This document shows, piece by piece, positions 40,612 to 61,933 of a DNA stretch of 64,000 nt. Source of the stretch: Eubacteriales bacterium (GTDB lineage: Bacteria > Bacillota > Clostridia > Oscillospirales > CAG-272); the NCBI GenBank assembly GCA_045649925.1, contig JAZRQS010000040.1, positions 1,499 to 65,498 on the forward strand, given 5' to 3'. The notes beneath the pieces are model-generated. The model had not been told where the DNA came from. It saw nothing but the letters and a program-made list of their open reading frames with translations, and searched no databases. Position numbers and translations under genes: made by a program. Each line of letters begins with the position of its first letter. Position 1 is the stretch's first letter.

Positions 40612-40640
40612 TTGACAAGACCGGGTCATTGTGATAGAAT
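40612..40640 (+). promoter_or_regulatory. SigmaA promoter of the polysaccharide operon
   Basis: TTGACA-17-TAGAAT with extended TG. Confidence 0.85.
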
Positions 40641-40654
40641 ACGTACTGTATTTT

Positions 40655-40737
40655 ATATTGAGCAAAATCGGTGAAAGCCGATGACGCAAAGCAAAGAGGC
40701 TAAGGTTTTTTACTATGCCAGTCCAGCTGCAATGATA
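40655..40737 (+). ncRNA. GEMM-I / c-di-GMP-I class riboswitch aptamer (A20 variant)
   Basis: GAGCAAA-ATCGGT-GAAA-GCCGAT-GACGCAAAGC...GCTAA...ATGC...CAGCTGC matches the GEMM-I consensus (GNRA tetraloop, tetraloop receptor, C44/A47/C92 equivalents). Confidence 0.92.
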
Positions 40738-40782
40738 CGAGGTCTTCGTGTGGCCTTTTGTTGTTGCAGCTTTTTGTTTTTT
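40725..40782 (+). terminator. Riboswitch expression-platform terminator
   Basis: AGCTGCAA (40725-32) pairs with TTGCAGCT (40764-71), extended by G-U pairs and an inner hairpin, followed by TTTTGTTTTTT. Confidence 0.8.
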
Positions 40783-40852
40783 GTACAGCTTTTGTGGCTG
40801 CACACGACATTCCCTCCAAACCATACCTACGATTTGAAAGGAACGTACAGAA

Positions 40853-41776
40853 ATGAATTTCAACATATACACATGGATCCTTCTCGCCTGCTGTCTTGCT
40901 TTGGCGACAGCGGTGGTGCTTCTCTCCGTAATGCTGAAGAAGAGCAGGGACAGGGCACGACGAGCACTTGAAGCAGAGGAGCTTTACAATTTACACAACA
41001 GCGATGCTGCATTGCTTGAAGAAATTGAAGCCGGACTTAAAAACGGCGAATTCAAAATGTATCTGCAGTTCATCGTTGACAACAAGACAAAGCGCATTAC
41101 GTCAGCTGAGGCGTTGTCAAGATGGGAAAGGCCCGACGGCGAGCTTATCTTCCCTGGCAAATACATTCCCGCAATGGAAAGAGCAGGCGTCATCACAAAG
41201 CTTGACTATTACATGTTTGAGCGCGCGTGCGAGAAGCTCTCGCAATGGGCGGACACAGAATTCGGAGAGCTCTCCATATCCTGCAACTTCACGAGATGCA
41301 CGATATCGGAGGATGACTTCGTTTCAAAGCTCAACGATATTGCAGACCATTACTCCTTTGACAAGAGCAAGCTCATTGTTGAGATAACCGAGGACTCTAT
41401 TGAAAAGAATCTCGACGTCGCTATCAAGAACATTCTGCGTGCAAAGGAGCTCGGCTTCAGCATTGCCCTCGACGATATAGGTAGCGGATACACCTCGCTT
41501 GTAAATCTTTGCGAGTATCCTATCGACATAGTAAAGCTCGACCGAGAGATACTGCTTATGACAAATGCCGAGCGTGGCAAAAAGCTGTTCTACGGCATAG
41601 TTTCACTTTCTCACTATCTCAACCTCAAGGTCGTCTGCGAGGGCGTGGAAACTGATGAGCAAAACAATCTCGTCAGCGAAAGCGAGTGTGATTTCGTGCA
41701 GGGCTGGTACTACTCAAAGGGACTTCCCGAGGATAAGGCGGAGGACTTTGCAAGGGAATACACGAGAGGGCTTTGA
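40853..41776 (+). CDS. Membrane-anchored EAL phosphodiesterase
   Basis: N-terminal TM; EALSRW, SCNF, VEITE, LDDIGSGY, VKLD, CEGVE, FVQG. Confidence 0.92.
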   Translation: MNFNIYTWILLACCLALATAVVLLSVMLKKSRDRARRALEAEELYNLHNSDAALLEEIEAGLKNGEFKMYLQFIVDNKTKRITSAEALSRWERPDGELIFPGKYIPAMERAGVITKLDYYMFERACEKLSQWADTEFGELSISCNFTRCTISEDDFVSKLNDIADHYSFDKSKLIVEITEDSIEKNLDVAIKNILRAKELGFSIALDDIGSGYTSLVNLCEYPIDIVKLDREILLMTNAERGKKLFYGIVSLSHYLNLKVVCEGVETDEQNNLVSESECDFVQGWYYSKGLPEDKAEDFAREYTRGL

Positions 41777-41803
41777 TTTTCTTCAAAAATCGGGAGATTT
41801 TCT

Positions 41804-42346
41804 ATGAACAAGGTTTTTAAAAAGGATTTATACAGGTTTTACGGCGAGGAGGGCGAGTCACTTGCCAAGAGAATGCTCCGCCCCCCAGAGCTTCGCTACA
41901 TAGCGCTCTTCAGACGAGCAAATGGGTGCAAATTCCTGCCCTTGAAGCTCTACTACACAGTCGCTCTCAAGCTTATGTCCTACAGGACAGCGATACAGAT
42001 ACCTGTCCGCACCGAGATAGGAGAGGGATTTTACATCGGTCATAGTGGCAGAGTTATTATAAATCCCGATGCCAAGCTCGGCAAGAATATGAATATCAGC
42101 ACAGGCGTAGTCATCGGGTGCGAAAACCGAGGAAAGCGCAAGGGCGCTCCCACCTTTGACGGAAACTGCTGGATAGGCGCAAATGCGGTGGTAGTAGGAA
42201 ATATTCATATAGGTGAGGACGTGCTTATCGCCCCCCTGTCATTCGTAAACACCGACGTCCCCCCGCACAGCGTGGTCGTCGGAAATCCCGCAAAAATCAT
42301 ATCAAAGGAAAACGCAACACAGGATTATATCTGCAACAAGGTCTGA
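41804..42346 (+). CDS. Serine-acetyltransferase-like LbH O-acetyltransferase (WcaB-type)
   Basis: EIGEGFYIGH, WIGANAVVVG, VVGNPAK; lacks the CysE N-terminal domain. Confidence 0.85.
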   Translation: MNKVFKKDLYRFYGEEGESLAKRMLRPPELRYIALFRRANGCKFLPLKLYYTVALKLMSYRTAIQIPVRTEIGEGFYIGHSGRVIINPDAKLGKNMNISTGVVIGCENRGKRKGAPTFDGNCWIGANAVVVGNIHIGEDVLIAPLSFVNTDVPPHSVVVGNPAKIISKENATQDYICNKV

Positions 42347-42370
42347 TAGAGCTACAAGGAGGACAGCGAA

Positions 42371-43870
42371 ATGTCAACAAAAGATAACAGAATAAAATAT
42401 AATTTGCTGTCCGGCTTTGCCTATCAGGTCATTCTTATCGCTATAGGCTTCCTTTTGCCCCGACTGTATCTTGAAAACTTCGGCTCGGAGGTAAACGGAG
42501 TTCTTTCCACCATAAAGCAAATATTCGTGTATATGACCTTGCTGGAGGCAGGTATAGGACTTGCCACCATGCAGGCGTTGTATAAGCCTGTCGCAGAGGG
42601 TGATCACGGAAGATCCAGTGCTATCCTCTCGGCGACCAACATTTTTTATATCAAGACGGGTGTCATCTATTCGGCGATCGTAATTTTACTTGCGGTCGTC
42701 TATGCCTTTTTTGTACCCACGAGCATACCCACCCTTGAGCTGTTTACTATCATTATTCTGACGGCTCTGCCTAACCTGTTCAGCTATTTCATTCAGGCGA
42801 AATACCGAGTTCTTCTCGAGGTAGACGGCAGAAAATACATAATTACAAATTCAGAGACTGTGCTCCAGCTTCTTGCCAATGTCGGCAAGATAGTCGTGCT
42901 TTTGCTCACCGACAGTCTCGTGCTTATCCAGCTTGTCTACTGCTTGCTCGCTCTCGCTCAGCTTGGATATGTATATATTCAGGCGAAGCACAGATACAAG
43001 TGGCTGTCGCTCAAGGCTGAGCCCGACTTTGAGGCGATATCTCAGAGAAAGTCGGTGCTCGTGCATCAGATTTCGGGCATGGTGTTCAACAACACAGACA
43101 TTCTGCTCCTTTCCTTCCTGTGCGACTTCAAGGTGGTAAGCGTCTACACTATCTACAACGTCTTTTTCTCGCAGGTGCAGATGTTTATAACGAGCATTAC
43201 CTCGGGCATCAGCTTTGCACTCGGTCAGTTGTTCCACACAAATAGGGAAAAATTTATGAAGGTCTACGATGTCTACGAGACATTTTACATAATGGCGACC
43301 TTCGTTATCTATACACTTATGGCGGTGTTCCTTCTGCCTCTTATTCAGATATACACGCAGGGCATAGATGACGCCAACTACACAAACGTGTATCTTGTGC
43401 TCCTGTTCGTTTTAATGAACCTTTTGTCAAACGGCAAGCTCCCCTCAAACCACGTGCTTGAATATTCCGGCAAGTTTGAGGAAACGCGCTCCCATGCAGT
43501 TATCGAGATGGCTATTAACATAGTAGTTTCCGTTGTGGCAATTCTTTTGTGGGGCATATGCGGAGCAATAGTCGGAACTATCGTTGCGCTTCTGTACAGA
43601 GGCACTATGATGATATATTATGCAAACAAGCGTGTGCTTTCCTGCTCTATGTTCCGTACCTACAAGCTGTGGCTTGTAAACGGCGCAGTCTTCGCTTTGG
43701 TAATGGCTATCTTCTTTGTCGATAGCTTTGCAGGGCTCTCGTTTGGCGCACTCGTCTTGAAGGGAATTGTCCACGCTCTTTGGATAGTGCCCACATATAT
43801 TCTGGTGAACTTCATTTTCTGCCGTCAGGCGTTTAAAAACATTTTCGAGTTAAGGGGGATAAAGAAATGA
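42371..43870 (+). CDS. wzx: Wzx flippase (polysaccharide biosynthesis transporter)
   Basis: About 13-14 TM; LPRLYLENFGSEVNG, LEAGIG, ALYKP. Confidence 0.85.
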   Translation: MSTKDNRIKYNLLSGFAYQVILIAIGFLLPRLYLENFGSEVNGVLSTIKQIFVYMTLLEAGIGLATMQALYKPVAEGDHGRSSAILSATNIFYIKTGVIYSAIVILLAVVYAFFVPTSIPTLELFTIIILTALPNLFSYFIQAKYRVLLEVDGRKYIITNSETVLQLLANVGKIVVLLLTDSLVLIQLVYCLLALAQLGYVYIQAKHRYKWLSLKAEPDFEAISQRKSVLVHQISGMVFNNTDILLLSFLCDFKVVSVYTIYNVFFSQVQMFITSITSGISFALGQLFHTNREKFMKVYDVYETFYIMATFVIYTLMAVFLLPLIQIYTQGIDDANYTNVYLVLLFVLMNLLSNGKLPSNHVLEYSGKFEETRSHAVIEMAINIVVSVVAILLWGICGAIVGTIVALLYRGTMMIYYANKRVLSCSMFRTYKLWLVNGAVFALVMAIFFVDSFAGLSFGALVLKGIVHALWIVPTYILVNFIFCRQAFKNIFELRGIKK

Positions 43871-44601
43871 GCATTCCAAAGGTGATACACTACTGCTGGT
43901 TTGGTCACGGAAAAATGCCCGCAATAGCCGAAAAATGTATAAAGAGCTGGAAGAAATACTGCCCCGACTATGAAATTATCTGCTGGAATGAAGAAAACTT
44001 CGACATTATGCAAAGCCGATACATGAGAGAGGCGTATGAGGCAGGGAAGTGGGCGTTTGTCAGCGATTTCGCAAGACTGAAGATTATATACGACCACGGC
44101 GGAATATATCTCGACACCGACGTTGAGCTTATCAAGTCGCTTGACCCTTTGCTCGACTATGACGGCTTTATGGGCTTTGACGAGAAGGGCATCGTTGCCA
44201 CAGGTCTTGGCTTTGGCGCAGAGGCAGGGAATGAGATAATAGCCTCGCTTCTGGAGGACTACGAGGATTTGCCGTTTGTTTTGGAGGATGGTAGCTTCGA
44301 CACCACCCCTTGTCCCGACAGAAATACGAGCGCATTAAAGCGTATCGGTATGGACACCGAAAACACCGACCAGATATTCAGGGGAATGAAATTCTTGCCA
44401 CAGGATTACCTTTGCCCGATGGATTTTTACACAGGCGTAAAGACGATTACGAAAAACACTTATTCCATTCACCACTACTGCGCATCTTGGACCTCCGATG
44501 TTACAAAGAGGACCACACGTATCAAGCGCATTATAGGAGTGAAGATGTATAATAAGCTTTATGGCAAGTTTTTGCACAAATTTAAGGGGTTGGAGTGGTA
44601 A
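43867..44601 (+). CDS. GT32 (DXD, Och1-like) glycosyltransferase
   Basis: IPKVIHYCWFG, SDFARL, GGIYLDTDVE, HHYCASW. Confidence 0.92.
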   Translation: MSIPKVIHYCWFGHGKMPAIAEKCIKSWKKYCPDYEIICWNEENFDIMQSRYMREAYEAGKWAFVSDFARLKIIYDHGGIYLDTDVELIKSLDPLLDYDGFMGFDEKGIVATGLGFGAEAGNEIIASLLEDYEDLPFVLEDGSFDTTPCPDRNTSALKRIGMDTENTDQIFRGMKFLPQDYLCPMDFYTGVKTITKNTYSIHHYCASWTSDVTKRTTRIKRIIGVKMYNKLYGKFLHKFKGLEW

Positions 44602-44602
44602 T

Positions 44603-46150
44603 ATGCCGGAAACATTGTTCATAAAAATGAAAGAGAATATAAAGCCTCAATGGAAGGTGTGCTTTATCTTTTCATTGATTGTCGGGCTTATCACTCATAT
44701 GTACAAGCTCACAAGCTGGCTACCAAACTGGGATTCGCTCGTCTTCCGTTATGACGGACAGAATATGCTGGCGATAGGCAGATGGTTTTTGCCTGTGGTG
44801 TGCGCCCCCTCGTCGTTTTATGATTTGCCGTGGGTGGCAGGGTTGCTCGCACTTCTGCTTCACGCACTTGGCGCAGTATGTATATGCAGAATGTTTTCAG
44901 TCGAGAAAAGCACGACATCGGCGCTTATCGGTGCGACAGTTATAGCATTCCCGACAGTAACGTCGGTTTTGACATACAACTATGTCGCTGACGGCTATGC
45001 ATTCGCATTTTTGCTCTCCTGCCTTGCAGGTATGCTCCTTGTGGAGAAAAAACCGAGATATATCGCCTCTGCTATCTGTATCACGCTTTCTGCAGGCATC
45101 TATCAGGCATATGTGACTGTCACTGTTATGCTCTTGCTTTGCTACTTGATTACAGAGGGCATCAGGAAGGATACAAGGGTAATTACACTTGTAAAGAAAA
45201 CTTTACAATTTCTTGCGACAGGAATTGTCGGCATGGTGCTTTACTATGTGATAATGAGGCTCGCTCTCAAGCTCACACATACAGAGCTTTTAGAGTATCA
45301 GGGCATAAGCGGAGCGCTTTCGCTTTCGCTTTCGAGCATGAATATTTTCGCCTCGCTTTATACTGTAAAGACCTCCTTTGTGGAGTATTTCTTCGATTTT
45401 TCAAACGGCGCTTCAGTTTTTTCAGTATTGAACTGTGTTATATTGGTGCTTACTGTTGTGTTGTATATTTTCGATATAGTAAAAAACAGGACAAGCCTCC
45501 CCAAGCTTTTGATTATCGCTTTTTGCACGATTATGCTCCCCATAGGTGCGAGCGTGCTTGCATTTATAAACAGCGACGTCGACTATCACAACCTGATGAA
45601 AATGGGATTTGTCGTCTTTTATCTGTTTTTGATATTGCAGTATGAAAAGCAGGACTTCAAGAGCGAGAGGCTGAACGCCATAAAGGCGTGGGGAATACTC
45701 GCAGTCGTTTTTGTGCTTGTGTTCAACTATGTTATAATTGCCAATGTCAGCTACCACAAGCTGAATATGGCGTATGAAAAGTCATACGGAGTGCTTGTGC
45801 GCATTGCAGACCGCATAGAGCAGACAGAGGGCGCATCAGAGTGTGAGAGAATTCTCGTTGTCGGCGCACTCGATAACAGCGAGCCGTATAGTGTAAATCT
45901 TCCCCCCGATATGACGGGCACCACCGACGGCTTTATACTGAGAGCTGACGATGAGGTAGTGGGACAGAGTGTTTTGTGTAGCGCATTGAATGATTACTGT
46001 GGAACTGACTACACGTTTGTATATGGTGACGAAAAGACTGCGCTTGTCGAAAGGGCGGACGAGATGGGCATGGGGCTTTGGCCTGCTTCTGATTCTGTCG
46101 CTGTCATAGACGGAGTTATCGTCATTTATCTCGGAATGGAGGGCCGTTGA
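44603..46150 (+). CDS. GT-C fold membrane glycosyltransferase (GtrII / Glucos_trans_II-like)
   Basis: About 10 TM; NWD...IGRWF loop, IYQAY, C-terminal extracellular domain. Confidence 0.75.
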   Translation: MPETLFIKMKENIKPQWKVCFIFSLIVGLITHMYKLTSWLPNWDSLVFRYDGQNMLAIGRWFLPVVCAPSSFYDLPWVAGLLALLLHALGAVCICRMFSVEKSTTSALIGATVIAFPTVTSVLTYNYVADGYAFAFLLSCLAGMLLVEKKPRYIASAICITLSAGIYQAYVTVTVMLLLCYLITEGIRKDTRVITLVKKTLQFLATGIVGMVLYYVIMRLALKLTHTELLEYQGISGALSLSLSSMNIFASLYTVKTSFVEYFFDFSNGASVFSVLNCVILVLTVVLYIFDIVKNRTSLPKLLIIAFCTIMLPIGASVLAFINSDVDYHNLMKMGFVVFYLFLILQYEKQDFKSERLNAIKAWGILAVVFVLVFNYVIIANVSYHKLNMAYEKSYGVLVRIADRIEQTEGASECERILVVGALDNSEPYSVNLPPDMTGTTDGFILRADDEVVGQSVLCSALNDYCGTDYTFVYGDEKTALVERADEMGMGLWPASDSVAVIDGVIVIYLGMEGR

Positions 46151-47058
46151 TGGTATATTATTGTGCCGATGATTACGGCATTTCCAAGGAATACAACAGA
46201 TGTATAGAGCAATGCCTTAGGGAAGGCATACTCAACAAGGTCAGCGTGTTGCCAAACGGAGAGATAGAGGACTTTGTGGAAAAGCTCAACTGCAAGGAGG
46301 GCGTTATGCTGACCCTGCATCTCAATATAGTGGAGGGCTATCCCTTGTCACCTAAAGAGGATATAGATTTGCTCGTTGACGAAAACGGGTGCTTCAAGTG
46401 TTCGTTTGTGGGACTGTTTTTGAAAGGATTTTCACCCAAGCGCAAGGAGTATGAGAAGCAGATGTATAAAGAAATACGAAATCAGCTTCGCTTCTGGGTG
46501 GAAAAAACGGGCGACAGATGCATTTCCGTCGACTGCCATCAGCACGCCTACGAGATACCATGGATATTCAAGACTTTGATGCAGGTCATTCGTGACGAAA
46601 AGCTTGACGTAAGGTATCTGCGAATCCCCGCGGAGCCTATTCGTGCCTACCTTCGTGTGCCGTCACTCTACAAGGCTTATAGCGTGACAGGGCTGATAAA
46701 GCAATGCCTTTTGAAGACACTCGCATTTATAAATCGCAGATACTTACGCGATATGGATTTCACATCTGCGCACTTTATGGGAGTTATGCTGTCGGGAAAA
46801 TTAAACCGAGAGCGTGTAGATAAGCTTTTGGGATATTACCTCTACCTTTCAGAGAAGAACAAGAGAAACATAGAGGTCGCATTCCACCCCGGCTATGCGC
46901 AACATGACCTTGAGCTTATTTCGGGTAGCAGAGAGGATTTCAAAAAGTTCTATTGCTCACCTTGGCGAAACCTTGAATATGAGGCTCTTATGAACAGCTC
47001 GCCTCAAAACGATATAAAAACGACAGAGAAGAAAGGGAACGAAAATGCCATATCTTGA
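46147..47058 (+). CDS. YdjC/ChbG/HpnK-family deacetylase
   Basis: ADDYG, LHLNI, DCHQH, FHPG. Confidence 0.88.
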   Translation: MMVYYCADDYGISKEYNRCIEQCLREGILNKVSVLPNGEIEDFVEKLNCKEGVMLTLHLNIVEGYPLSPKEDIDLLVDENGCFKCSFVGLFLKGFSPKRKEYEKQMYKEIRNQLRFWVEKTGDRCISVDCHQHAYEIPWIFKTLMQVIRDEKLDVRYLRIPAEPIRAYLRVPSLYKAYSVTGLIKQCLLKTLAFINRRYLRDMDFTSAHFMGVMLSGKLNRERVDKLLGYYLYLSEKNKRNIEVAFHPGYAQHDLELISGSREDFKKFYCSPWRNLEYEALMNSSPQNDIKTTEKKGNENAIS

Positions 47059-47725
47059 AAAAGAAAAAGTCGATGAAAAAACAAGAAAAAAGCTGGAGGC
47101 GCTGATAGAAAAATCATACTCCGGCTACTGGAAGAAAAAGCGCCTTTTCGACATATTTTTTGCTACGATAATTCTGCTCGGATTTCTTCCGCTGATGGCA
47201 ATTATCGCCCTCGTTATCGTCATTGACGATCCGAGCGCAGGCCCGTTTTTCAAGCAAAAGCGTGTCGGTCGTCACGGCAAGGAGTTCTATATGTATAAAT
47301 TCCGTACGATGCGACCGGATGCGGAGCAGCTCCTCGATCAGCTCAAGGATCAGAACGAGATGGAGGGCCCTGTATTCAAGATTAAGCACGATCCGAGAAT
47401 TACGAGAGTGGGAAAAATCCTTCGTAAGCTCTCGCTTGACGAGCTTATGCAGTTCTTCAACGTGTTCAAGGGAGATATGACACTTGTAGGTCCTCGCCCC
47501 CCGCTTCCTCGTGAGGTCGAGTACTACACCGACTACCAGAAGCTCCGTCTGCACGTCACCCCCGGAATTACCTGCACATGGCAGATTTCCAAAAACAGAA
47601 ACGACATTCCCTTCGAGGACTGGGTTGAGATGGACCTCGACTACATACAAAACAGAACCTTCCCCGGCGACATTCTCATCATGCTCAAGACACCCATCGT
47701 AATGCTGAGCGCTACCGGAAGATAA
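47045..47725 (+). CDS. Priming phosphoglycosyltransferase (Bac_transf)
   Basis: KRLFDI, FYMYKFRTM, DPRITRVG, SLDEL, LVGPRP, PGITCTWQ. Confidence 0.95.
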   Translation: MPYLEKEKVDEKTRKKLEALIEKSYSGYWKKKRLFDIFFATIILLGFLPLMAIIALVIVIDDPSAGPFFKQKRVGRHGKEFYMYKFRTMRPDAEQLLDQLKDQNEMEGPVFKIKHDPRITRVGKILRKLSLDELMQFFNVFKGDMTLVGPRPPLPREVEYYTDYQKLRLHVTPGITCTWQISKNRNDIPFEDWVEMDLDYIQNRTFPGDILIMLKTPIVMLSATGR

Positions 47726-47758
47726 ACTTGCCATATTGGATTAGATTGGAGAAAAGAA

Positions 47759-49867: not shown

Positions 49868-49887
49868 TAGAAAGGAGTGTTCTTCGT

Positions 49888-51246: not shown

Positions 51247-51266
51247 CGCGGACATAGGAGGTAAAA

Positions 51267-53162: not shown

Positions 53163-53200
53163 AACGAAAAAACAAAGCTAAAGGAAAGGGGGCAAATGAG

Positions 53201-54511
53201 ATGGAAACGGAAAATAAATACGTGCGCATAGTCGGAAAGGCGTACTTTATGGCTGTCGCTGTGCTTATGTACTATTTTCTCACACAGGTAATACAGCTTG
53301 GAATATTCGTCACATATCGACACGCATTTGCCCTCGTCCTGTTTTGCTCGGCGTTTGTAGTCTTTTTATACAAGCCGAACATAGCGCGAGGAGTCGCATC
53401 ACTCAAGGCGACTCTCGTTTACTGCGCTCCACTTATCGTGACGGTGGTTGCATCACTGCTCATATGGTTTGTCGGGCAGGTCGACACATCGGTCATTGCG
53501 AGAGGATTATCAGCAACTTTTGTTTACAATAATATGATTTCCTTCACTCTCGCATCTGTTGCATTCCTTTACATCTTTGGCGAAAAGGGAATGTGGTATA
53601 ACCTTGTCGCTATACTTATTGCGAACATTATGATGATTTTGACTATCATAGCGCAAAACGGAATAGGCGTGTTTCTTTCCGAGCTTGTGACGCTTGTCAT
53701 TACCTTTGCAGGACAGACGGGTGACGTCATTGTACAGGCGGAAATACACGAGCTTGCGTTCTGTCTCGGAGCTTACCTCGTGTATATGCTCCTAAAGCCA
53801 CGGCGTGACGCAGTTTATTTCATATTGCTCGGTCTTACCTCGTTCTGCTTTATAGTAGCGTTCAAGCGTATCGGTATGATAGCCATTGCGCTTGCCTTGG
53901 CGTTTGGCTGGGGGCTCAAGCTTATAGCAAAATTGAAAAAGGATATGGCGTCACGTCTGGTGACCATATTCACTATCCTTCTCGTGCTTGTCCTGATAGG
54001 CTATGTTGCCATTATCAAGATGGACGTATTCACGCTTATAGAAAAGGCGGGAATTGACACGAGCGGACGAGTGGTAATTTACAACGCCGTTGATAAATTT
54101 TATGAATTTTCACCCGAGTTTTTAGGAAATGGTATAGGATTTCTGACATACCAGCTCAGCACCAATATGAATGTCGGCGTAAACTCGGTGCACAACGACT
54201 TTTTACAGTATTTTATCGACCTCGGCTTTTTTGGATATATTTTCTGGCTCCTTTCCATGACAGTTTTGAGGGTTTCCTATTTCGGAGCAAGGGGAAAGAC
54301 GGAAAATGCGATAATCACATTCGCTCTGACTGTGTATCTCGTTATCGTTTCCTCTACCGATAATACTCTTAACTACCCTCTGCTCACGACCGTGCTGGGT
54401 GTAATTATGATAGGTCAGGGCTTTGACGAGCGTGTAAGACATGCTGAGACAAAGCTGTTTGGATATATTTCCGATGCAAACAAAAATACAGGAGGTAACT
54501 CTCTCTTATGA
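53201..54511 (+). CDS. wzy: Wzy polymerase / O-antigen-ligase-family membrane protein
   Basis: About 11 TM; KR..., TSGRV.IY, LGNGIG, VHNDFLQYFIDLGFFG (Wzy_C motif). Confidence 0.8.
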   Translation: METENKYVRIVGKAYFMAVAVLMYYFLTQVIQLGIFVTYRHAFALVLFCSAFVVFLYKPNIARGVASLKATLVYCAPLIVTVVASLLIWFVGQVDTSVIARGLSATFVYNNMISFTLASVAFLYIFGEKGMWYNLVAILIANIMMILTIIAQNGIGVFLSELVTLVITFAGQTGDVIVQAEIHELAFCLGAYLVYMLLKPRRDAVYFILLGLTSFCFIVAFKRIGMIAIALALAFGWGLKLIAKLKKDMASRLVTIFTILLVLVLIGYVAIIKMDVFTLIEKAGIDTSGRVVIYNAVDKFYEFSPEFLGNGIGFLTYQLSTNMNVGVNSVHNDFLQYFIDLGFFGYIFWLLSMTVLRVSYFGARGKTENAIITFALTVYLVIVSSTDNTLNYPLLTTVLGVIMIGQGFDERVRHAETKLFGYISDANKNTGGNSLL

Positions 54512-55719
54512 AAATACTAATGGTAAACAAGTTTTTGTACCCCAGAGGCGGGTGCGAAACCTATATGCTCAATCTTGCCGAGGAATTGAAGGCAAAGGGG
54601 CATGAGGTGGAATACTTCGGTATGTATGACGAAAAGAATACGGTAGGCAACTCGCTCGGCTTATATACCACAAATATGGACTTCCACGATGCAGGTCTTG
54701 AGAAATTTCTTTACCCCTTCAGAATAATCTTCTCGACAGAGGCAAAGAAAAAGCTCGGACGCCTGCTTGATGAATTCAAGCCCGATGTCGTACATATGAA
54801 CAACATCAATTTCCAGCTCACTCCATCCGTTATCTATGCGGTGAAAAAGAGAAATATCCCTCTCGTGCAGACGGTCCACGACTATCAGATGATATGTCCT
54901 AACCATCTTCTTTACAGCTTCGGTGAGGTAAAGCCCTGCGAGAGATGTATAAACGGCTCAAAGCTCAATTGCTTTAAGTACAATTGTATTCACGACTCAA
55001 AGGCAAAGAGCCTTATCGGTGCCATTGAGGCAAAGCTGTATAAAATTCTTAAAACATATAAAAAGGTGGACCTTTATATCTGCCCGAGCAAATTCCTTGA
55101 GGAAAAGCTCCTTTTGGCGTCGGATTTGTATAAGGGCAAGACTGTGGCATTGCACAACTTTATAGAAAAGAAGCCCCTGCCCGAAAAGGTCACACCCGAA
55201 AAGCCCTATGTCGCCTTTGCCAGCAGACTGTCAAAGGAAAAGGGAGTCACGCTTCTCTACGAGGCGGCAAAAATGCTCCCCGACTATTCATTCCTTGTCG
55301 CAGGTAGCGGTCCTGACGGAGACTGCCTCAACGAGGTGCCAAACATTACTATGAAGGGCTTCCTCACAGGCGATGAGCTCACCTCGCTTATGGCAAACGC
55401 TCATGTTATGCTTTTGCCGTCGGTATGGTATGAAAACTGCCCCCTCTCGATACTTGAGACACATTCCTACGGCGTGCCCGTTATAACCATGAACAGTGGC
55501 GGAATGGCAGAGCTCGTAGAGGACGGCAAGACAGGTGCGCTTATAAACGAGCCTACCCCTGAGGCTGTTGCCGACGCTATCAGACGCTGCTTTGAGGACG
55601 AGGAATATTACAACACCCTCAAAGAGAATTGTGAAACCATGAAAGACAAGATTATAGGTGTCAGCGAATACTGCGACATCGTGATTTCAAAATACAAAGA
55701 CCTTATAGAACAGAGGTAA
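54508..55719 (+). CDS. GT4 glycosyltransferase
   Basis: RLSKEKG, PSVWYENCPLSILE. Confidence 0.92.
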   Translation: MKILMVNKFLYPRGGCETYMLNLAEELKAKGHEVEYFGMYDEKNTVGNSLGLYTTNMDFHDAGLEKFLYPFRIIFSTEAKKKLGRLLDEFKPDVVHMNNINFQLTPSVIYAVKKRNIPLVQTVHDYQMICPNHLLYSFGEVKPCERCINGSKLNCFKYNCIHDSKAKSLIGAIEAKLYKILKTYKKVDLYICPSKFLEEKLLLASDLYKGKTVALHNFIEKKPLPEKVTPEKPYVAFASRLSKEKGVTLLYEAAKMLPDYSFLVAGSGPDGDCLNEVPNITMKGFLTGDELTSLMANAHVMLLPSVWYENCPLSILETHSYGVPVITMNSGGMAELVEDGKTGALINEPTPEAVADAIRRCFEDEEYYNTLKENCETMKDKIIGVSEYCDIVISKYKDLIEQR

Positions 55720-55724
55720 ATCTA

Positions 55725-56780
55725 ATGTCTATCCCAAAGGTTAGCATTGTCGTTCCCGTATATAATACGGAGAAATATCTTGAGCAGTGCATAGCTTCTC
55801 TTTTAGCGCAGACGCTTAGTGAAATAGAGATAATTATAGTAGACGACGGCTCAAAGTCGGAGTGCGCCCAGCTTTGCGACACTCTTGCCAAGACAGACTC
55901 TCGTATCAGCGTGATACATAAGCAAAACGGTGGTCTCGGTCTTGCGAGAAATACGGGCATCTCTGCCTCGCTTGGCGAGTACGTAGGCTTTGTCGACTCC
56001 GACGACTACGTAAAGCCGACGATGTTTGAGTCGCTCTACTCGGCGGCAAGTCGCTATGGTGCCGACCTCGCTATTTCGGGCATGTCATTCGTCGGCGGAA
56101 ACACTTTTGCTCAAAGTGGTGACTACGAGGAAAAGCATTATTTCAGCGAGGACACCATCTTTGAAAACGAGGGAGTGCGTGAGCTCCTTCTCGGAGTGGT
56201 AGGTGCGCTCCCGAAAAATGCCGACGACAGCCGATACGGCGTCAGCGTGTGCAAGAATATCTTCAGGCGCGAGCTTTTGCTGAGCGGGAATATAGAGTTT
56301 TTCTCGGAGCGCAAGATAATAAGCGAGGATACACTCTTTATGGTGGATTTTGTCAAGCGCACGAAAAAGGCGGTCGGAATTCACGGCGCATTTTACTGCT
56401 ACAGAAGAAACGACGCTTCCTTGTCAAAGTCCTATAGGAGCGACCGATTTGAAAAGGTCCTTATATTCCTTTCCGAGCTTGAAAAGCACATAAGCGACAC
56501 ATTTGCAACAGAGGAGTACGCCTTGTATTTCGACAGGCTCGTGCAGGGATACGGAAGAATTTTGTGCTCACAGGAAATTCTGTATGCACACGACAACAAG
56601 ATCAAATATCGCGCGCTTAAAGCTCGCCTTGCAGAGATTTGCACGCACGAGGCGATAAAAGGTGCGCTTAAGGATTACCCGTGGTATCAGCTTCCCAAAA
56701 AGCAGGCGGCATTTGCATTTTGTATGAAGCACAGACTGTACCTTTTGCAAAAGGTTATGGTATTACTCAGAGCAAGATAG
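55725..56780 (+). CDS. GT2 glycosyltransferase
   Basis: SIVVPVYN, VDDGS, ARNTG, FVDSDD. Confidence 0.93.
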   Translation: MSIPKVSIVVPVYNTEKYLEQCIASLLAQTLSEIEIIIVDDGSKSECAQLCDTLAKTDSRISVIHKQNGGLGLARNTGISASLGEYVGFVDSDDYVKPTMFESLYSAASRYGADLAISGMSFVGGNTFAQSGDYEEKHYFSEDTIFENEGVRELLLGVVGALPKNADDSRYGVSVCKNIFRRELLLSGNIEFFSERKIISEDTLFMVDFVKRTKKAVGIHGAFYCYRRNDASLSKSYRSDRFEKVLIFLSELEKHISDTFATEEYALYFDRLVQGYGRILCSQEILYAHDNKIKYRALKARLAEICTHEAIKGALKDYPWYQLPKKQAAFAFCMKHRLYLLQKVMVLLRAR

Positions 56781-56791
56781 GAGATAAGAGT

Positions 56792-57817
56792 ATGCTTTTC
56801 TCGGTAATAGTTCCGATTTACAATATTGAAAAATATCTTCGTCGCTGTATTGATAGCGTGCTTTCGCAGTCGTTTACCGACTACGAGCTTATTCTGGTCG
56901 ACGACGGCTCGCCCGACGCCTGCCCTGCAATTTGCGACGAGTATGCAAAAACAGACGAAAGAATAAAGGTTATCCACAAGCAAAACGGAGGTCTCGTCAG
57001 CGCAAGACAGGCAGGCATTCGTGTGGCAAGTGGCGACTATGTTTTTCACCTCGACGGCGATGACGCTATATACGAAAATGCGCTTGAGGAGGCTCACAAG
57101 ATTATAGAGGAAATGCACCCTGACATTGTTTCCTTCTCCTATAGACGCTGTATAAACGGCGAGCCTGAGGAGGTCGTAGACGACCTTGTCGGTGAGGGGC
57201 TTTATAACAAGGCTGATATAGAGAAATATATCTACCCGAAGCTCTTGTCCGATGAAAAAATGCAAAACCTTTTCTACTTCTTGTGGGGCAAGGCGATAAA
57301 GCGTGAGCTCGCCACCAAGCACCAGCTGAATGTAAATCCCATCATCTCTCTTGGTGAGGACGTCAGCTGCAGCACCCCCTGCTATCTTGAGGCAGAGACA
57401 GTCTATATGAGCAGAAAGGTCGTGTATCTCTACACCATCAGATGCGACTCCCTGACTACAAACTTCAAGACCAGCCAGATAACCCAGATTGCCGACGTTA
57501 TAGTCGGACTTCGCGCGCTGGATATGAAAAAGCCTGACGACTTTGAAGAGCAGATTGCCCGCTACTCCTGCTTTTTGTGCTTTGCTATTCTTGCTTCAGC
57601 CGCAGAGGGCGGACACTTCAAGTCACTTTCCGAAATAAAGAGGCTTATACTTACGTCCTTGCATAAGGACGAGATAAAAAAAGCGCACTTTACCGATATT
57701 ACGATAAAATCGCGCATTTCCGTATTTTTGATGAAAAGAGGAATGATACGCTTGGCATTCTGCTTCTTGTTCTTGTGCAAGCAGATAAAGCGTTTGAGAA
57801 AGGGGAAAAATTCATGA
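56792..57817 (+). CDS. GT2 glycosyltransferase
   Basis: SVIVPIYN, VDDGS, SARQAG, LDGDD, GED. Confidence 0.93.
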   Translation: MLFSVIVPIYNIEKYLRRCIDSVLSQSFTDYELILVDDGSPDACPAICDEYAKTDERIKVIHKQNGGLVSARQAGIRVASGDYVFHLDGDDAIYENALEEAHKIIEEMHPDIVSFSYRRCINGEPEEVVDDLVGEGLYNKADIEKYIYPKLLSDEKMQNLFYFLWGKAIKRELATKHQLNVNPIISLGEDVSCSTPCYLEAETVYMSRKVVYLYTIRCDSLTTNFKTSQITQIADVIVGLRALDMKKPDDFEEQIARYSCFLCFAILASAAEGGHFKSLSEIKRLILTSLHKDEIKKAHFTDITIKSRISVFLMKRGMIRLAFCFLFLCKQIKRLRKGKNS

Positions 57818-58893
57818 AAAGCGAAGTAAAGATTTCCGTCATTATGAGTGTTTATAACGGAGAGGACTATCTTGCCGAGGCGATAGACAGCGTGCTCGCA
57901 CAGAGCTTTCGTGACTTTGAGCTTATCGTTATAAACGACTGCTCCACAGATAGCACCAGCGAGATTTTAAAGCGCTATGCAGAGCTTGACTCTCGTGTAA
58001 AGGTGCATACAAACGAGCAAAATCTTCGACTCCCGTCATCGCTTAACCGGGCGATATCCTTGGCAGAGGGTAAGTACATAGCGAGAATGGACGCTGACGA
58101 CATCTGCATGCCCGACAGATTTGAAAAGCAGTATGCATTTATGGAGGCAAACCCCGACATTGCACTTTCCTCCTGCAGATTTATGACCTTGAAAAACGGA
58201 GTTATTTCCTCGGGTGGTTGCGGAGGCAAGCCCGACCATGAGTCTATCAAGGCGTTGCTCTTGGTTACAAACCCGATACTCCACCCCGGCATTATTGCAA
58301 AGGCAGAGATAATCCGCTCGCTCGGCTATGACAAGAGCTTTACCTGTACAGAGGATATGGAGCTTTGGTCGAGATTCGTTATGGCAGGTCACAGGGTGGA
58401 GATACAGTCGGAATACCTGATGATATACCGACTTCACGATAAGCAGATTACCGAGACTACACGTGAGCGTCAGCGTGGCGAGGTCATCGCCATACAAAAG
58501 CGCTACTACGGCGAGCTGCTCGAGTGCATGAGCGAGGAGCAGGAGAAATTCTATATAAACGGAATTTATTTCTGCGACGATACCGACGTAGACAAGCTCT
58601 GCAAATTCCTTCGTTATCTCAAAAAGGCAAATCGCAAGTCGGGCAAGCTCGACAGCTACGCCATCTATTATGCAATGCTCGAGATACTTGCAGAGTACAA
58701 GAGACGTGGCATAGGAAAGTCGAAGATAATCAAGGGTATGCTTTCCTTCAGCCCCTTCTTCCTTATAAAAGAAATCCCCGCGCGCAAAAAGCGTGCCGTA
58801 AATGATGGCAAAAAGTGTATAGCAAGCGCCGAGAAAATCGGACTTGTTCATTCAGGAGGAAGCTTGGAATTCCCCATTTTTTCACAAAAGTGA
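57814..58893 (+). CDS. GT2 glycosyltransferase
   Basis: SVIMSVYNGE, INDCSTD, ARMDADD, TED. Confidence 0.93.
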   Translation: MKSEVKISVIMSVYNGEDYLAEAIDSVLAQSFRDFELIVINDCSTDSTSEILKRYAELDSRVKVHTNEQNLRLPSSLNRAISLAEGKYIARMDADDICMPDRFEKQYAFMEANPDIALSSCRFMTLKNGVISSGGCGGKPDHESIKALLLVTNPILHPGIIAKAEIIRSLGYDKSFTCTEDMELWSRFVMAGHRVEIQSEYLMIYRLHDKQITETTRERQRGEVIAIQKRYYGELLECMSEEQEKFYINGIYFCDDTDVDKLCKFLRYLKKANRKSGKLDSYAIYYAMLEILAEYKRRGIGKSKIIKGMLSFSPFFLIKEIPARKKRAVNDGKKCIASAEKIGLVHSGGSLEFPIFSQK

Positions 58894-58909
58894 TACAGGA
58901 GCATAGAGC

Positions 58910-60289
58910 ATGCGAATTTTTGAATATCCGTATAGTATAATTTTCATTTTGGTCGTCAGCCTTTTCCTTTTGGGTGGCATAATAGTATATTTTGCAGTAA
59001 AGGGATTAAAGACGACGAATTACGAGGAGGAGAACACCTTTGTGAGCATAAGCAAGCTGGAGACGAGCTTTGCCACATCGGGAAAATTCCGTGAGAGGCG
59101 TTGCGTTATGTATATCGATGTCGCCCTCGACAATTATCGTAGCTTGTACTCTGAGGCAAGGACGGAAAAGGTTTATGCCGACATAAAGAGCGTTCTGCTC
59201 AATTCGTTTTCCCCTCTCAAAAACGGCTACATATCAACATATGGCGAGCGCACCTTCGTCGCTTACTCCATCAATGAGCCTGAGGAGATAAGAGAGGTAG
59301 TGGAGGGCTTCAGCTCCTCTTTGACCAAGTGTCTCACCGACGCAGGCGCATTAAACATTATCGAGGTAAAGATAGGAGCTTTCTTTGCATTCGGCTCGGA
59401 CCTTTCCTTTGACGAGGCAATAGGCAGAGCAAAGCAGGCGTGCATTCTCGCAAAGAATGAAAAATTGCCGTATGCCGAGTGGAATGTAAGCAGTGGAAAA
59501 TCACTCGAAAAGAAGATAAAGATAGAGAACAATATTGAGAGCGAGATAGACAACAATCGCTTTTTCCTCGTTTATCAGCCCGTCATTGATGCAAAGACAA
59601 AGGAGATTATCGGAGCAGAGGTCTTGTCACGACTCAACTCCTCAAGCTCAGGCATTCTCCAGCCTGGCAGCTTCTTGTCCGCCGTTGATTCTGTAGGTCT
59701 CAACAACAAGTTTGACTACTACATCTTTGAGAAAAACTGCAAGTGGATATCAAATGACAAAAAACAGCGAGAGGGATATAAGTACACCATCAATTTCTCA
59801 CGCTCTACCTTGTCAGAGCCTGAATTTGTCGAAAAGATAACCAGCATAGCAGAGAAGTACGAGCTCAATTCCTCCTGCCTTGCCGTCGAAATTCTTGAGG
59901 ACAAGAACATTACAGACGAAGAAAAGAATCAGATGATGGAAAATCTGTCGTCACTTAAGGAAAAGGGAATTTCCGTACTGCTCGACGACTTCGGAAGTGG
60001 ATACGCCACCTTCGGCGACCTGCAGAATCTCGATATTTCCATCGTGAAGATAGATAGCGTTATCACGCAGAATTCCGTTACGGAAAACGGATATATAATT
60101 CTTGAAAACATTGTCCGTATGGCGAAGAGCATCGGATTTAAGACGCTCTGTGAGGGCGTAGAAACGGCAGCGCAGGAGGAGGCCGCCATTCGCGCAGGCT
60201 GCGACTTGCTTCAGGGCTACTACTATTACAGGCCTATGCCCGCCGTTATGCTTGAAAACCTGCTTGACAACAGTCGGGAAAATTCATAA
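58910..60289 (+). CDS. TM-degenerate GGDEF-EAL protein (probable phosphodiesterase)
   Basis: TYGERTF replaces GGDEF; EVLSR, INFS, VEILE, LDDFGSGY, VKID, CEGVE, LQGY. Confidence 0.85.
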   Translation: MRIFEYPYSIIFILVVSLFLLGGIIVYFAVKGLKTTNYEEENTFVSISKLETSFATSGKFRERRCVMYIDVALDNYRSLYSEARTEKVYADIKSVLLNSFSPLKNGYISTYGERTFVAYSINEPEEIREVVEGFSSSLTKCLTDAGALNIIEVKIGAFFAFGSDLSFDEAIGRAKQACILAKNEKLPYAEWNVSSGKSLEKKIKIENNIESEIDNNRFFLVYQPVIDAKTKEIIGAEVLSRLNSSSSGILQPGSFLSAVDSVGLNNKFDYYIFEKNCKWISNDKKQREGYKYTINFSRSTLSEPEFVEKITSIAEKYELNSSCLAVEILEDKNITDEEKNQMMENLSSLKEKGISVLLDDFGSGYATFGDLQNLDISIVKIDSVITQNSVTENGYIILENIVRMAKSIGFKTLCEGVETAAQEEAAIRAGCDLLQGYYYYRPMPAVMLENLLDNSRENS

Positions 60290-60317
60290 AAGCGCATAAA
60301 AGCGATAAGGGGGAGAA

Positions 60318-61319
60318 ATGGGACGAAATGTTCTTGTCGACAGACTAAAGGGATACGCCTGCTTTCTGGTGCTCTTCGGGCATGTTATCCGAGGGATTCG
60401 CACAGCGGGTGTTGATATACCATCATTCTTCTTTGGAATGGAGATGTTCATCTGGTCGTTCCATGTCGCCCTCTTTTTGTTCTTGAGTGGCGTTGTGTAT
60501 CGCCTGACAGGTGAGTGGAAAAGGCACAAGACAAAAGGCGCTTTTATACTCAACAAGCTGCTTTCGCTCGGCGTGCCATATATCGTCTTTTCCTCTGTCT
60601 ACATATTCATAAACAGTATAGTAGGTAGTGCAAATACACAGTCCTCGCTTCGGGATATTTTGCTCATCTGGAAGGCTCCCGTCGCACAGTATTGGTACTT
60701 GTATGCGCTGTTCTTTTTGTTCTGCATATGGTGTGCCTTGTCAGGCATTTTAAAGAACTGGCAGATTACCCTGCTTACGCTCGTCGTCGCCTACGGCGTG
60801 CCACTGCTTGGAGGCTCGCTCGGTTGCTTCGATGTGGTTTTCTATTCCGCTCTTGCATTCGGTGTAGGCACTTTTGTAGACTTTGAGCGATTTCCAAATG
60901 CTAAAGCCTGCATCAAGTGGGTGGTGGTAATTATCCACCTTGCGCTCGGTGTTATAACCCTTCGCGCAGGCATTATCGAATCCCCGCTCGTCAAGGAGCT
61001 TATGCTGCTTTTCGGCATCTATTCGAGCATTTTGTTAATTTCCATGCTACAGAAGATAAAGCCGTTTGCCACATTTTTGGATTTTGTCAATAAGTATTCA
61101 TTCCAGATATATCTTTTGCACACCATCTTTACAGCAGGTGTGAGAATCGTTTTGCTCCGTCTCGGCATCACACAGTGGTGGCTCCATGTGCCTGTAGGCA
61201 CTGTATGTGGTCTTGTATTCTCCGTGCTTGCGTCGATAATTGCAAGAAGGACAGGATTTTTAGACCTGTTCTTTTTTCCGACGAAGGCATTCAAAAAAGA
61301 AAGAGTGATACAGAAATGA
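60318..61319 (+). CDS. Acyltransferase family 3 (OafA-like) O-acyltransferase
   Basis: VDRLKG..VLFGH, FHVALFLFLSG, YWYLYALF; about 10 TM. Confidence 0.9.
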   Translation: MGRNVLVDRLKGYACFLVLFGHVIRGIRTAGVDIPSFFFGMEMFIWSFHVALFLFLSGVVYRLTGEWKRHKTKGAFILNKLLSLGVPYIVFSSVYIFINSIVGSANTQSSLRDILLIWKAPVAQYWYLYALFFLFCIWCALSGILKNWQITLLTLVVAYGVPLLGGSLGCFDVVFYSALAFGVGTFVDFERFPNAKACIKWVVVIIHLALGVITLRAGIIESPLVKELMLLFGIYSSILLISMLQKIKPFATFLDFVNKYSFQIYLLHTIFTAGVRIVLLRLGITQWWLHVPVGTVCGLVFSVLASIIARRTGFLDLFFFPTKAFKKERVIQK

Positions 61320-61933
61320 GTAAATTCAAAAGATTGATAGCCGTTTTCAACTATCCGAGGACGTTGCCCGTCTATTTGTGCGCGCTCGCCTCCCATCAGA
61401 AAAAGCTGATAAGGGCAGACGTCGAGCGATGGAATAAAATCGAGGGGATAGAGCTTGGATTTTTCAAATCGCTGAATTGGTATATGACGTATAAAAAGGA
61501 ATTTCGTAACCTCATTCAGCATCGCCTCAAGCATCCGTCAGACACGCCTGCGTCACTTTTGCATTTCATTATTGCGAGAGCGCTCTGGCGACCGATGGAG
61601 AGCCTGTTTATCTACACAAAGGACATAGGTGGCGGACTTTACATTCAGCACGGCTTCGCTACCATCATCAGCGCGAAGAAGATAGGACAAAACTGTCGCG
61701 TATATCAGCAGGTCACCATCGGATATAAGGGCGACGACGCGCCTATCCTTGAGGACAACGTCTCGGTTACGTGTGGTGCAAAGGTGCTCGGCGGCATTGT
61801 ATTGCGTGAAAACAGTCTGGTAGCCGCAGGCGCAGTCGTAGTCAAGGACACGCCCAAAAACGCGATAGTGGCAGGCGTGCCCGCGAAGGTCATCGGCTAC
61901 AAGGACGAGGACGATCTCGACTTTCAGGGCTGA
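61316..61933 (+). CDS. Second SAT-like LbH O-acetyltransferase
   Basis: IGGGLYIQHG, VYQQVTIG, GAKVLG, VAGVPAKVI; ATGA overlap with the upstream gene. Confidence 0.85.
   Translation: MSKFKRLIAVFNYPRTLPVYLCALASHQKKLIRADVERWNKIEGIELGFFKSLNWYMTYKKEFRNLIQHRLKHPSDTPASLLHFIIARALWRPMESLFIYTKDIGGGLYIQHGFATIISAKKIGQNCRVYQQVTIGYKGDDAPILEDNVSVTCGAKVLGGIVLRENSLVAAGAVVVKDTPKNAIVAGVPAKVIGYKDEDDLDFQG

Follow-up and report, generated by a model that had tools for sequence, protein, structure and literature searches.

What is understood of exopolysaccharide control by cyclic di-GMP (c-di-GMP) concerns mainly synthase-type systems and, in Proteobacteria, transcription factors. Local c-di-GMP modules are known at polysaccharide machines, for example DgcC/PdeK at the E. 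coli cellulose synthase, and in Caulobacter the holdfast glycosyltransferase HfsJ, part of a Wzy-type pathway, is activated by c-di-GMP. Degenerate GGDEF domains serve as c-di-GMP receptors of synthase-type exopolysaccharide (EPS) systems, as in B. subtilis YdaK, Listeria PssE and Pseudomonas PelD, all of which bind the messenger via an intact RxxD motif. At the level of RNA, C. difficile Cd1 is a c-di-GMP-I transcriptional OFF switch and the class II pilA1 leader functions analogously as an ON switch. An ON/OFF pair has been studied (PMC9262584). Here we analyze a locus in which an RNA switch of this kind precedes genes for a Wzx/Wzy-type glycan: positions 40612-61933 of a 64,000-nucleotide (nt) stretch, hereafter the window, from a CAG-272 Eubacteriales bacterium (assembly GCA_045649925.1, contig JAZRQS010000040.1).

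We consider it probable that c-di-GMP induces this region as an operon for a surface heteropolysaccharide of the Wzx/Wzy type, and that the operon has its own negative feedback. Each part is of a known kind (a GEMM-I riboswitch, EAL and GGDEF enzymes, Wzx/Wzy-type genes), and the regulatory layout is clear and testable. An earlier description made from the letters of the window (the sequence-only reading) had claimed one promoter, a riboswitch and 18 tightly spaced, co-oriented genes, with an intact diguanylate cyclase directly upstream. Consensus scoring, Rfam and Pfam/NCBIfam profiles agree with it: all 18 genes lie on the plus strand behind promoter and riboswitch, separated by gaps of at most 38 nt or overlapping by 4-14 nt, and the upstream gene encodes RMGGDEF and dCache sequences (coordinates in Table 1). 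Gene families match the earlier list almost throughout; the labels 'Wzx' and 'Wzz-like' find no backing from Pfam or NCBIfam sequence profiles. The same reading had proposed control at three levels. Gating of transcription and feedback through phosphodiesterases are well supported by the sequence, and control of polymerization through a Wzz-like protein fused to a degenerate GGDEF domain (GGDEF*) is not.

The evidence that carries the argument lies in the leader. The promoter is the best sigma-70-type site within 36-44 kb, and the aptamer starts eleven bases 3' of it, matches RF01051 over the full model (1-87), scores above the 35-bit gathering score of that family and is the only copy in the genome. 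In the minimum-free-energy fold of 40645-40860 (z = -3.45), the aptamer is followed by a long hairpin and then by UUUUUGUUUUUUG, an arrangement typed in Table 1 as the expression platform. The 5' arm of this terminator, AGCUGCAAUGAUA, starts within the 3' strand of the aptamer, and AGCUGC is common to both. Because the terminator arm and the aptamer strand are the same sequence, the ligand-bound aptamer and the terminator should be mutually exclusive, and c-di-GMP should thus permit read-through. We compared the window with 20 orthologous leaders, and the overlap between terminator arm and aptamer strand is present in 21/21. The terminator arms covary, for example as GGCCGCAA/UUGCGGCC in leaders L040, L075 and L076, and almost all 21 leaders have the TTGACAA...TGnTAnAnT arrangement 5' of the aptamer, with a shorter spacer in L075 and L076. 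The conserved overlap with its compensatory changes is the strongest single result of the analysis. An ON switch is therefore strongly supported by architecture and comparison, from which the response to ligand is predicted. The transcriptional level of control claimed earlier is in this way retained and sharpened, from a riboswitch to an ON switch that works via an overlapping terminator.

Compared with c-di-GMP-I riboswitches of Firmicutes such as Cd1, the leader is alike in aptamer fold and sequence and in having an intrinsic terminator that competes for the closing strand of the aptamer. It differs in carrying A at position 20, in gating a 21-kb operon with phosphodiesterase genes besides those for a Wzx/Wzy-type glycan, and in being the sole such riboswitch of a 1.55-Mb genome.

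The rest of the c-di-GMP inventory is equally small. The assembly (1.55 Mb, 95% complete) encodes three GGDEF proteins, namely the upstream cyclase, the GGDEF* fusion and a Cache-HAMP-GGDEF protein on a 4.3-kb contig (C29). It encodes two EAL proteins, both in the operon. A profile search of the genome found no PilZ domain, so that, with a single c-di-GMP-I riboswitch in the inventory, this RNA is the only recognizable c-di-GMP effector. The upstream cyclase is arranged as a transmembrane (TM) helix, a dCache-like domain, a second TM helix and GGDEF, ending in some 130 residues without a domain call; it lacks the RxxD inhibitory site (I-site), having GQRV at that position. It adjoins the cluster in 25/37 relatives with enough upstream DNA and is the likely source of the signal, encoded outside the unit that the riboswitch controls. 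The third GGDEF protein (L081:996-2612) has an intact GGDEF motif and N (in GHGVGN) at the position of PleD D344, and its gene adjoins a serine-recombinase fragment.

Both operon-encoded EAL proteins are supported by their sequence as predicted membrane-anchored c-di-GMP phosphodiesterases with complete catalytic sets. On inspection of the translations, EAL1 has EAL, N, ExxE, DDIGSGY, KLD, EGVE and QG, and gEAL2 has EVL, N, EILE, DDFGSGY, KID, EGVE and QG. The GGDEF remnant of gEAL2 is strongly degenerate (GERTF, with LKNG at the RxxD position) and was detected, from about residue 105, only by full-length NCBIfam GGDEF-EAL models and not by Pfam GGDEF. The proposal that co-transcribed EALs turn over the signal is thus supported, as both score above 200 bits, keep their catalytic residues and are the only EALs of the genome. 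Since the only phosphodiesterases stand under the riboswitch, the layout predicts negative feedback. Like DgcC/PdeK at the E. coli cellulose synthase, the locus would encode a dedicated cyclase and phosphodiesterases together with the machine they serve, and with HfsJ the action of c-di-GMP on a Wzy-type pathway has a precedent. Unlike in both of these systems, the only recognizable effector is an RNA, and both phosphodiesterases are placed under that RNA.

To compare the locus among species, relatives were gathered through the fusion of a GT4 glycosyltransferase with a metallophosphoesterase in a collection with one genome per species. This gave 147 genome stretches, from which 80 loci, 66-78% identical, were kept. 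Nearly all are gut metagenome-assembled genomes, labeled Clostridia, Oscillospiraceae, Acutalibacteraceae, Eubacteriales, Congzhengia or Ructibacterium, and their hosts are yak, sheep, goat, cattle, buffalo, deer and Hadza people. A metagenome-assembled genome (L017) of Congzhengia, a named genus that includes a described species, has the complete cluster together with the riboswitch. Across the 80 loci the run from LbH1 to gEAL2 is syntenic in every locus long enough, with protein identities of 45-95%. The GGDEF* fusion occurs in 58/58 loci and gEAL2 in 54/55 loci reaching it, whereas the head of the cluster varies, with the riboswitch in 20/47 heads and EAL1 in 21/47. In a closer group, which has EAL1 too, 16/19 heads have the riboswitch. 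A more distant group has it in only 4/28 (L040, L055, L075, L076), where it lies directly before Wzx and 3' of LbH1. Judged by this distribution, the riboswitch and the first EAL are accessory, and the GGDEF* protein and the second EAL belong to the core. That homologous clusters might commonly lack the signaling genes and the riboswitch had been foreseen as a difficulty for the proposed system; this is so for riboswitch and EAL1, absent from more than half, and not so for the GGDEF* fusion, always present, or for gEAL2, nearly always present. Where related cluster-bearing genomes were searched, 11/16 have a c-di-GMP-I riboswitch; its best match is at the cluster in 11/11 and is the only one in 10.

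Relatives without a riboswitch yielded no hidden one, either at the Rfam gathering threshold (12 loci), at E up to 0.1 (3 loci) or with our own model with filters off. Three of their leaders before Wzx (L056:5167-5395, L070:4425-4664 and L072:4449-4664) keep a promoter, TTGACAAAA, and a hairpin that resembles a terminator and has a U-run. They align loosely with the riboswitch leaders and have no recognizable aptamer (Rfam E > 0.1; at most 4 bits with our own model in L070), and may be either decayed or diverged riboswitches. Locus L055 has two riboswitch-like elements, a strong one (L055:1332-1428; 66 bits, Rfam) 5' of the EAL gene region and a weak one (L055:4464-4560; 33 bits, own model) directly before Wzx.

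The cluster is patchily distributed among close relatives. It is present in 6/201 sampled genomes of its own family in the Genome Taxonomy Database (GTDB), in 0/3 other sampled congeners and in 18/401 genomes of the order. For the GGDEF* fusion, other GTDB families supply the closest copies (60-73% identity), and the best copy within the family reaches 59%. This pattern of distribution and identity suggests horizontal transfer of a 20-kb locus between families of gut Clostridia. GC content is flat across the window (0.455-0.494), and composition therefore neither shows nor excludes transfer.

From these components a circuit can be proposed. The Cache-domain cyclase upstream would raise c-di-GMP. 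The c-di-GMP-bound aptamer would retain its own 3' strand, the terminator would be blocked and RNA polymerase would enter the 18 genes. By the families of their products, the priming transferase and six cytoplasmic glycosyltransferases would build an acetylated repeat unit on undecaprenyl phosphate, the Wzx candidate would flip it, and Wzy with a paralogous pair of bitopic membrane proteins would polymerize it. GT-C, YdjC, the acyltransferases and an ecto-metallophosphoesterase are presumed to decorate the product outside the membrane. The two EALs made from the same transcript would then lower c-di-GMP, so that expression is limited or pulsed.

The sequence-only reading had not recognized this architecture as a described system, and its novelty stands as far as the literature searched reaches. 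In that literature we found no description of a GEMM-I ON switch before a Wzx/Wzy-type cluster, of a riboswitch that also drives the only phosphodiesterases of the cell, or of an invariant fusion of a protein resembling a polysaccharide co-polymerase (PCP) with GGDEF*. In this small genome of a gut Clostridia bacterium, all of the c-di-GMP network appears to converge on one Wzx/Wzy-type glycan operon: its riboswitch, its two phosphodiesterases and, counting the upstream cyclase, two of its three GGDEF proteins. The circuit, minimal and complete in itself with its cyclase, RNA switch, polymer and feedback by phosphodiesterases, lends itself to reconstruction and testing. Well over a hundred uncultured species from the hindgut of ruminants and humans conserve the cluster, and the polymer is therefore likely to matter for colonization of, or attachment to, fiber or mucus.

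Several observations weigh against this interpretation. The riboswitch is missing from 27/47 homologous heads and lies before Wzx in four, and is thus an accessory layer rather than a fixed part of the system. Sequencing runs that match the locus are gut-metagenome DNA only, so that transcription as a single unit and the ON response are both inferred. The candidate Wzx has no Pfam, NCBIfam or PDB profile match, and its hhalign comparison with E. coli WzxC gave nothing. The Wzy_C family covers WaaL/PglL-type ligases besides polymerases, so the product could be a ligated glycan and not free EPS. Neither bitopic protein matches Pfam Wzz (PF02706) at E up to 5, a GNVR match is likewise unreported, and hhalign against E. 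coli WzzB, Wzc and the alignment of the genome's own CpsC family gave probabilities of at most 3%. Finally, the A at position 20 of the aptamer is formally compatible with sensing of 3',3'-cyclic GMP-AMP (cGAMP), or of both dinucleotides.

The extent of the regulated unit is one place where another explanation has to be weighed, namely transcription of the 18 genes in more than one unit, with internal promoters for a large part of the cluster and riboswitch control confined to the first gene or genes. Promoter-like hexamers are indeed present inside the cluster, four relatives have the riboswitch directly before Wzx and 3' of LbH1, and clusters without a riboswitch must be driven by other signals. 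Internal promoter-like sites are nevertheless at chance level (33 against 29.3 +/- 6.5 expected), and the spacing speaks for continuity: gaps do not exceed 38 nt when computed with the likeliest starts (44603, 56792, 57814 and 61316), seven gene pairs overlap start to stop, and no internal terminator stands out. Terminator-like sites on the plus strand inside the cluster are weak, with 17 found against 18.0 expected from shuffles (both strands), in agreement with the earlier statement that no obvious terminator separates the genes. We regard a split unit as unlikely and keep the 18 genes as a probable single operon.

Just as doubtful is the proposal that the GGDEF* tail is a post-translational receptor of c-di-GMP or GTP that gates polymerization or export in place of a bacterial tyrosine kinase (BY-kinase). 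To evaluate it we consider first the proteins concerned. PCP1 has two N-terminal TM helices, an ectodomain of about 350 residues and a C-terminal TM helix (AlphaFold2 pLDDT 76). PCP-GGDEF* has a TM helix, an ectodomain of about 410 residues, a second TM helix and a cytoplasmic GGDEF-fold domain (pLDDT 72). In these models, which are of moderate confidence, both ectodomains are largely helical with a small alpha/beta base, a topology of the PCP kind. The two families are paralogous (hhalign 93.9%, E 1.6e-7, 262 columns). The best Foldseek match of PCP1 is Wzc in the Wza-Wzc complex (9r64_I, E 8e-3, probability 0.90, TM-score 0.20) and its fourth is full-length WzzB (6rbg, E 0.06, TM-score about 0.2). 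With the full PCP-GGDEF* model, GGDEF matches alone appear among the top 50. A PDB profile search found nothing significant that links either protein to Wzz or other PCPs, and both lack the Pro-rich motif before a Gly-rich second TM helix, a motif present in the canonical CpsC of the genome (NPPTMAINPDN...GGMIG). The two proteins are PCP-like by topology and position, and their membership of the family is unproven.

The PCP1 family comprises 638 representatives at 50% identity. Three members (P0331, P0356 and P0389) are fused to an N-terminal metallophosphoesterase or to a GT2 domain. These fusions mirror genes that neighbor PCP1 in the window, which suggests that the proteins act as one complex; they tie the family functionally to its neighbors without making PCP1 a Wzz.

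The GGDEF* domain itself folds as GGDEF (Foldseek E about 1e-6, TM-score to target 0.7). Its signature is GNGSF and its I-site position reads KSNA (family consensus KTxA). Judged by these motifs the tail is catalytically dead and has no known c-di-GMP-binding motif; with neither RxxD nor GG(D/E)EF, no known mode of c-di-GMP binding is predicted. All 37 orthologs compared have YNGxGxF and D524, and at least 90% of them keep D507 and N515. We take D507, N515 and D524 to be the equivalents of PleD D327, N335 and D344, and these kept guanine contacts would leave room for GTP or half-site binding. Conceivable roles of the tail are scaffolding, sensing of guanine nucleotides and docking of the cyclase or phosphodiesterase.

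A receptor role would agree with the presence of the fusion in 58/58 homologous clusters, with its kept guanine contacts, with a GGDEF fold placed after the second TM helix, where Wzc bears its kinase, with the pairing of the protein with its paralog PCP1 next to Wzy, and with the lack of any kinase or phosphatase gene in the cluster. It is countered by the missing RxxD and GG(D/E)EF motifs, by the failure of Pfam, hhalign and Foldseek (best E 8e-3, TM-score 0.2) to establish PCP membership, and by kinases encoded elsewhere. Contig C41 (L088:8077-9605) encodes a canonical CpsC, matched by Pfam Wzz at 39 bits, and behind it a CpsD-like BY-kinase; the pair lies directly 3' of pgk and tpiA, before a MutS2-like gene and outside any glycan cluster. 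Walker A (GGSGKS), A' and B motifs are present in this CpsD, which has a YxxxxYxYxYxY cluster at its C terminus. In 20/20 cluster-bearing entries checked (18 distinct genomes), CpsD-like matches are found outside the cluster, with one genome (G202) having only weak ones at 24-31% identity. Kinase control in trans is therefore conceivable, and the idea that the GGDEF* tail replaces a kinase is weakened. The polymerization level of the sequence-only reading, with a Wzz-GGDEF* receptor, lacks support on these same points, and direct second-messenger control of Wzy-dependent polymerization is unsupported so far.

Comparison with described loci sets out both sides of this question. Like CpsA-D and EpsA-B loci (PCP-2b with BY-kinase) and E. 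coli Wzc (PCP-2a, 9r64), the cluster combines a priming transferase, glycosyltransferases, a flippase candidate and Wzy with bitopic, large-ectodomain proteins beside the polymerase, one of which has Wzc as its best fold match. Unlike them, it lacks LCP, PHP phosphatase and BY-kinase genes, as the Pfam scan of its proteins indicates (nucleotide-sugar genes were not found there either), with CpsC/CpsD elsewhere in the genome. The PCP-like pair fails the Wzz and GNVR profiles, has no Pro-rich motif and ends in one case in a dead GGDEF domain. As in YdaK, PssE and PelD, a membrane-anchored, catalytically dead GGDEF domain is encoded within an EPS operon; here the I-site is KSNA and the pathway Wzx/Wzy-type, whereas theirs is an intact RxxD in synthase-dependent systems.

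A broader evolutionary scenario strikes us as quite speculative. In it, a widespread monoderm Wzx/Wzy lineage exchanged its tyrosine-kinase module for a guanine-nucleotide or c-di-GMP module, the divergent PCP paralogs form the co-polymerase ring as a hetero-pair, polymerization is set by the pseudo-cyclase with its kept guanine contacts, through occupancy by c-di-GMP or GTP or through docking, and riboswitch gating with feedback was added in some lineages. The docking partner would be the adjacent cyclase or the TM-GGDEF*-EAL protein. The PCP-like/GGDEF* fusion may thus reveal a second mode of regulating Wzy-dependent assembly, an idea unsupported so far, and BY-kinases are present in trans.

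The nature of the product is a further question. Homologs 75-85% identical to the candidate Wzx bear the names COG2244-type exporter or polysaccharide biosynthesis C-terminal domain protein (PF14667), and one carries PF01943 in its source annotation. The priming transferase, one of two such phosphoglycosyl transferases in the genome, scores below the curated cut-off of TIGR03025 (295.55 bits), and the metallophosphoesterase part of the GT4 fusion is predicted to lie outside the membrane. Rather than a facultative biofilm EPS, the product might be a conserved cell-envelope glycan (a secondary wall polymer, a lipid-anchored glycan or a protein or S-layer glycan), with the Wzy_C protein as ligase. 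The definition of Wzy_C, which spans WaaL/PglL-type ligases, permits this; for a capsule or EPS locus, the content and order of genes vary unusually little (16 genes across 80 species-level genomes); genes for an LCP ligase or for nucleotide sugars are absent from the cluster; and a second, conventional Wzx/Wzy locus exists on contig C24. Yet the cluster is patchy (6/201 in the family, 0/3 among other congeners sampled, 18/401 in the order) and therefore dispensable, and second-messenger gating together with two PCP-like proteins fits a conditional polymer better. We consider an envelope glycan distinctly unlikely and continue to favor a c-di-GMP-induced surface heteropolysaccharide.

The locus on C24 (L089:2508-15356) encodes a DegT aminotransferase, Bac_transf, GT2, a deacetylase, ATP-grasp, two GT4, Wzy_C and a Polysacc_synt flippase; the 16 kb examined there show neither a PCP nor a kinase. 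The orphan CpsC/CpsD pair may serve this locus.

The identity of the ligand turns on one base. The position that is G20 in Vc2, and makes a specificity contact there, is A in the window (40661, the base before GCAAA). Across 19 aligned orthologous aptamers in the same genomic context, position 20 is A in 12 and G in 7. In Hypr enzymes, the PleD D344 position decides the choice between GTP and ATP. Aptamers with A20 bind c-di-GMP via a protonated adenine, as observed by nuclear magnetic resonance, and A20 variants bind c-di-GMP, cGAMP or both, a Clostridium beijerinckii A20 aptamer being bispecific (PMC6140456). That the riboswitch senses cGAMP, or both dinucleotides, is very improbable: A at this position accompanies cGAMP selectivity in Geobacter GEMM-Ib, to the extent reported there (Kellenberger/Nelson 2015, as cited in PMC6140456), and the third GGDEF enzyme has N and not D at the PleD D344 position, but orthologous aptamers of the same context carry G20 in 7/19 cases, the enzymes encoded by the operon and its neighbor are EALs and canonical GGDEFs (the adjacent cyclase reads GHAEGD), a profile search of the genome found no SMODS/CD-NTase as candidate cGAMP synthase and no Ser/Thr Hypr signature was seen, and A20 aptamers, one from Clostridium included, still bind c-di-GMP (PMC6140456). 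The alternation of A20 and G20 among orthologs favors c-di-GMP, which we take as the probable physiological ligand.

Table 1. Features of the c-di-GMP-linked glycan locus, in window coordinates, with the evidence for each assignment.
Feature	Position	Strand	Evidence
Promoter, sigma-70-type	40612-40640	+	TTGACA-17-(TG)TAGAAT, 11/12
c-di-GMP-I (GEMM-I) aptamer	40651-40734	+	RF01051, 60.4 bits, E 2.5e-9
Expression platform	40725-40784	+	Hairpin 40725-40771, U-tract 40772-40784
Sensor diguanylate cyclase	38314-40599	+	Pfam GGDEF 62 bits, dCache_1
EAL1, single-TM-anchored EAL phosphodiesterase (predicted)	40853-41776	+	Pfam EAL 206 bits
LbH1, hexapeptide-repeat acyltransferase, probable O-acetyltransferase	41804-42346	+	Pfam Hexapep
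Candidate Wzx/MOP flippase, 499 residues, about 12 TM	42371-43870	+	Annotated homologs
GT32-type glycosyltransferase, DXD motif	43867-44601	+	Pfam Gly_transf_sug 67.5 bits, Caps_synth
GtrII-type GT-C membrane glycosyltransferase	44603-46150	+	Pfam Glucos_trans_II 157 bits
YdjC-family (ChbG-like) protein, probable sugar deacetylase	46147-47058	+	Pfam YdjC 118 bits
Small monotopic priming phosphoglycosyl transferase	47045-47725	+	Bac_transf 215 bits; TIGR03025 261 bits
GT4 + TM helix + calcineurin-like metallophosphoesterase	47759-49867	+	Glycos_transf_1, Glyco_transf_4, Metallophos
PCP1, Pfam-less membrane protein, candidate co-polymerase	49888-51246	+	Paralogy, fold matches
PCP-GGDEF*, membrane protein with cytoplasmic GGDEF-fold tail	51267-53162	+	Pfam GGDEF 39 bits
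Wzy-type polymerase (O-antigen ligase/polymerase superfamily)	53201-54511	+	Wzy_C 37.8 bits, cut-off 31.7
GT4 glycosyltransferase	54508-55719	+	Pfam
GT2 glycosyltransferase (a)	55725-56780	+	Pfam
GT2 glycosyltransferase (b), C-terminal TM helix	56792-57817	+	Pfam; likely ATG 56792
GT2 glycosyltransferase (c)	57814-58893	+	Pfam; likely ATG 57814, 4-nt overlap with preceding stop
gEAL2, TM-GGDEF remnant-EAL	58910-60289	+	Pfam EAL 203.5 bits
OafA-type membrane acyltransferase	60318-61319	+	Pfam Acyl_transf_3 100 bits
LbH2, hexapeptide acyltransferase, variable operon end	61316-61933	+	Weak Pfam Hexapep; likely ATG 61316

The 3' end of the cluster is variable. A terminator scan found none 3' of LbH2, and among five relatives checked downstream the OafA-type gene is kept in 4/5 and LbH2 in 1/5. 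In 4/5 relatives about 950 nt lie between the second EAL gene and the OafA-type gene (L083:3212-4170, L084:3149-4117, L085:3026-4019 and L087:3342-4312), a stretch that the window does not have and that is about the size of one putative extra gene. Elsewhere in the window, an S10-Clostridia ribosomal protein leader (RF03136) lies at 3794-3869 (47.4 bits), which places the cluster in a core chromosomal context.

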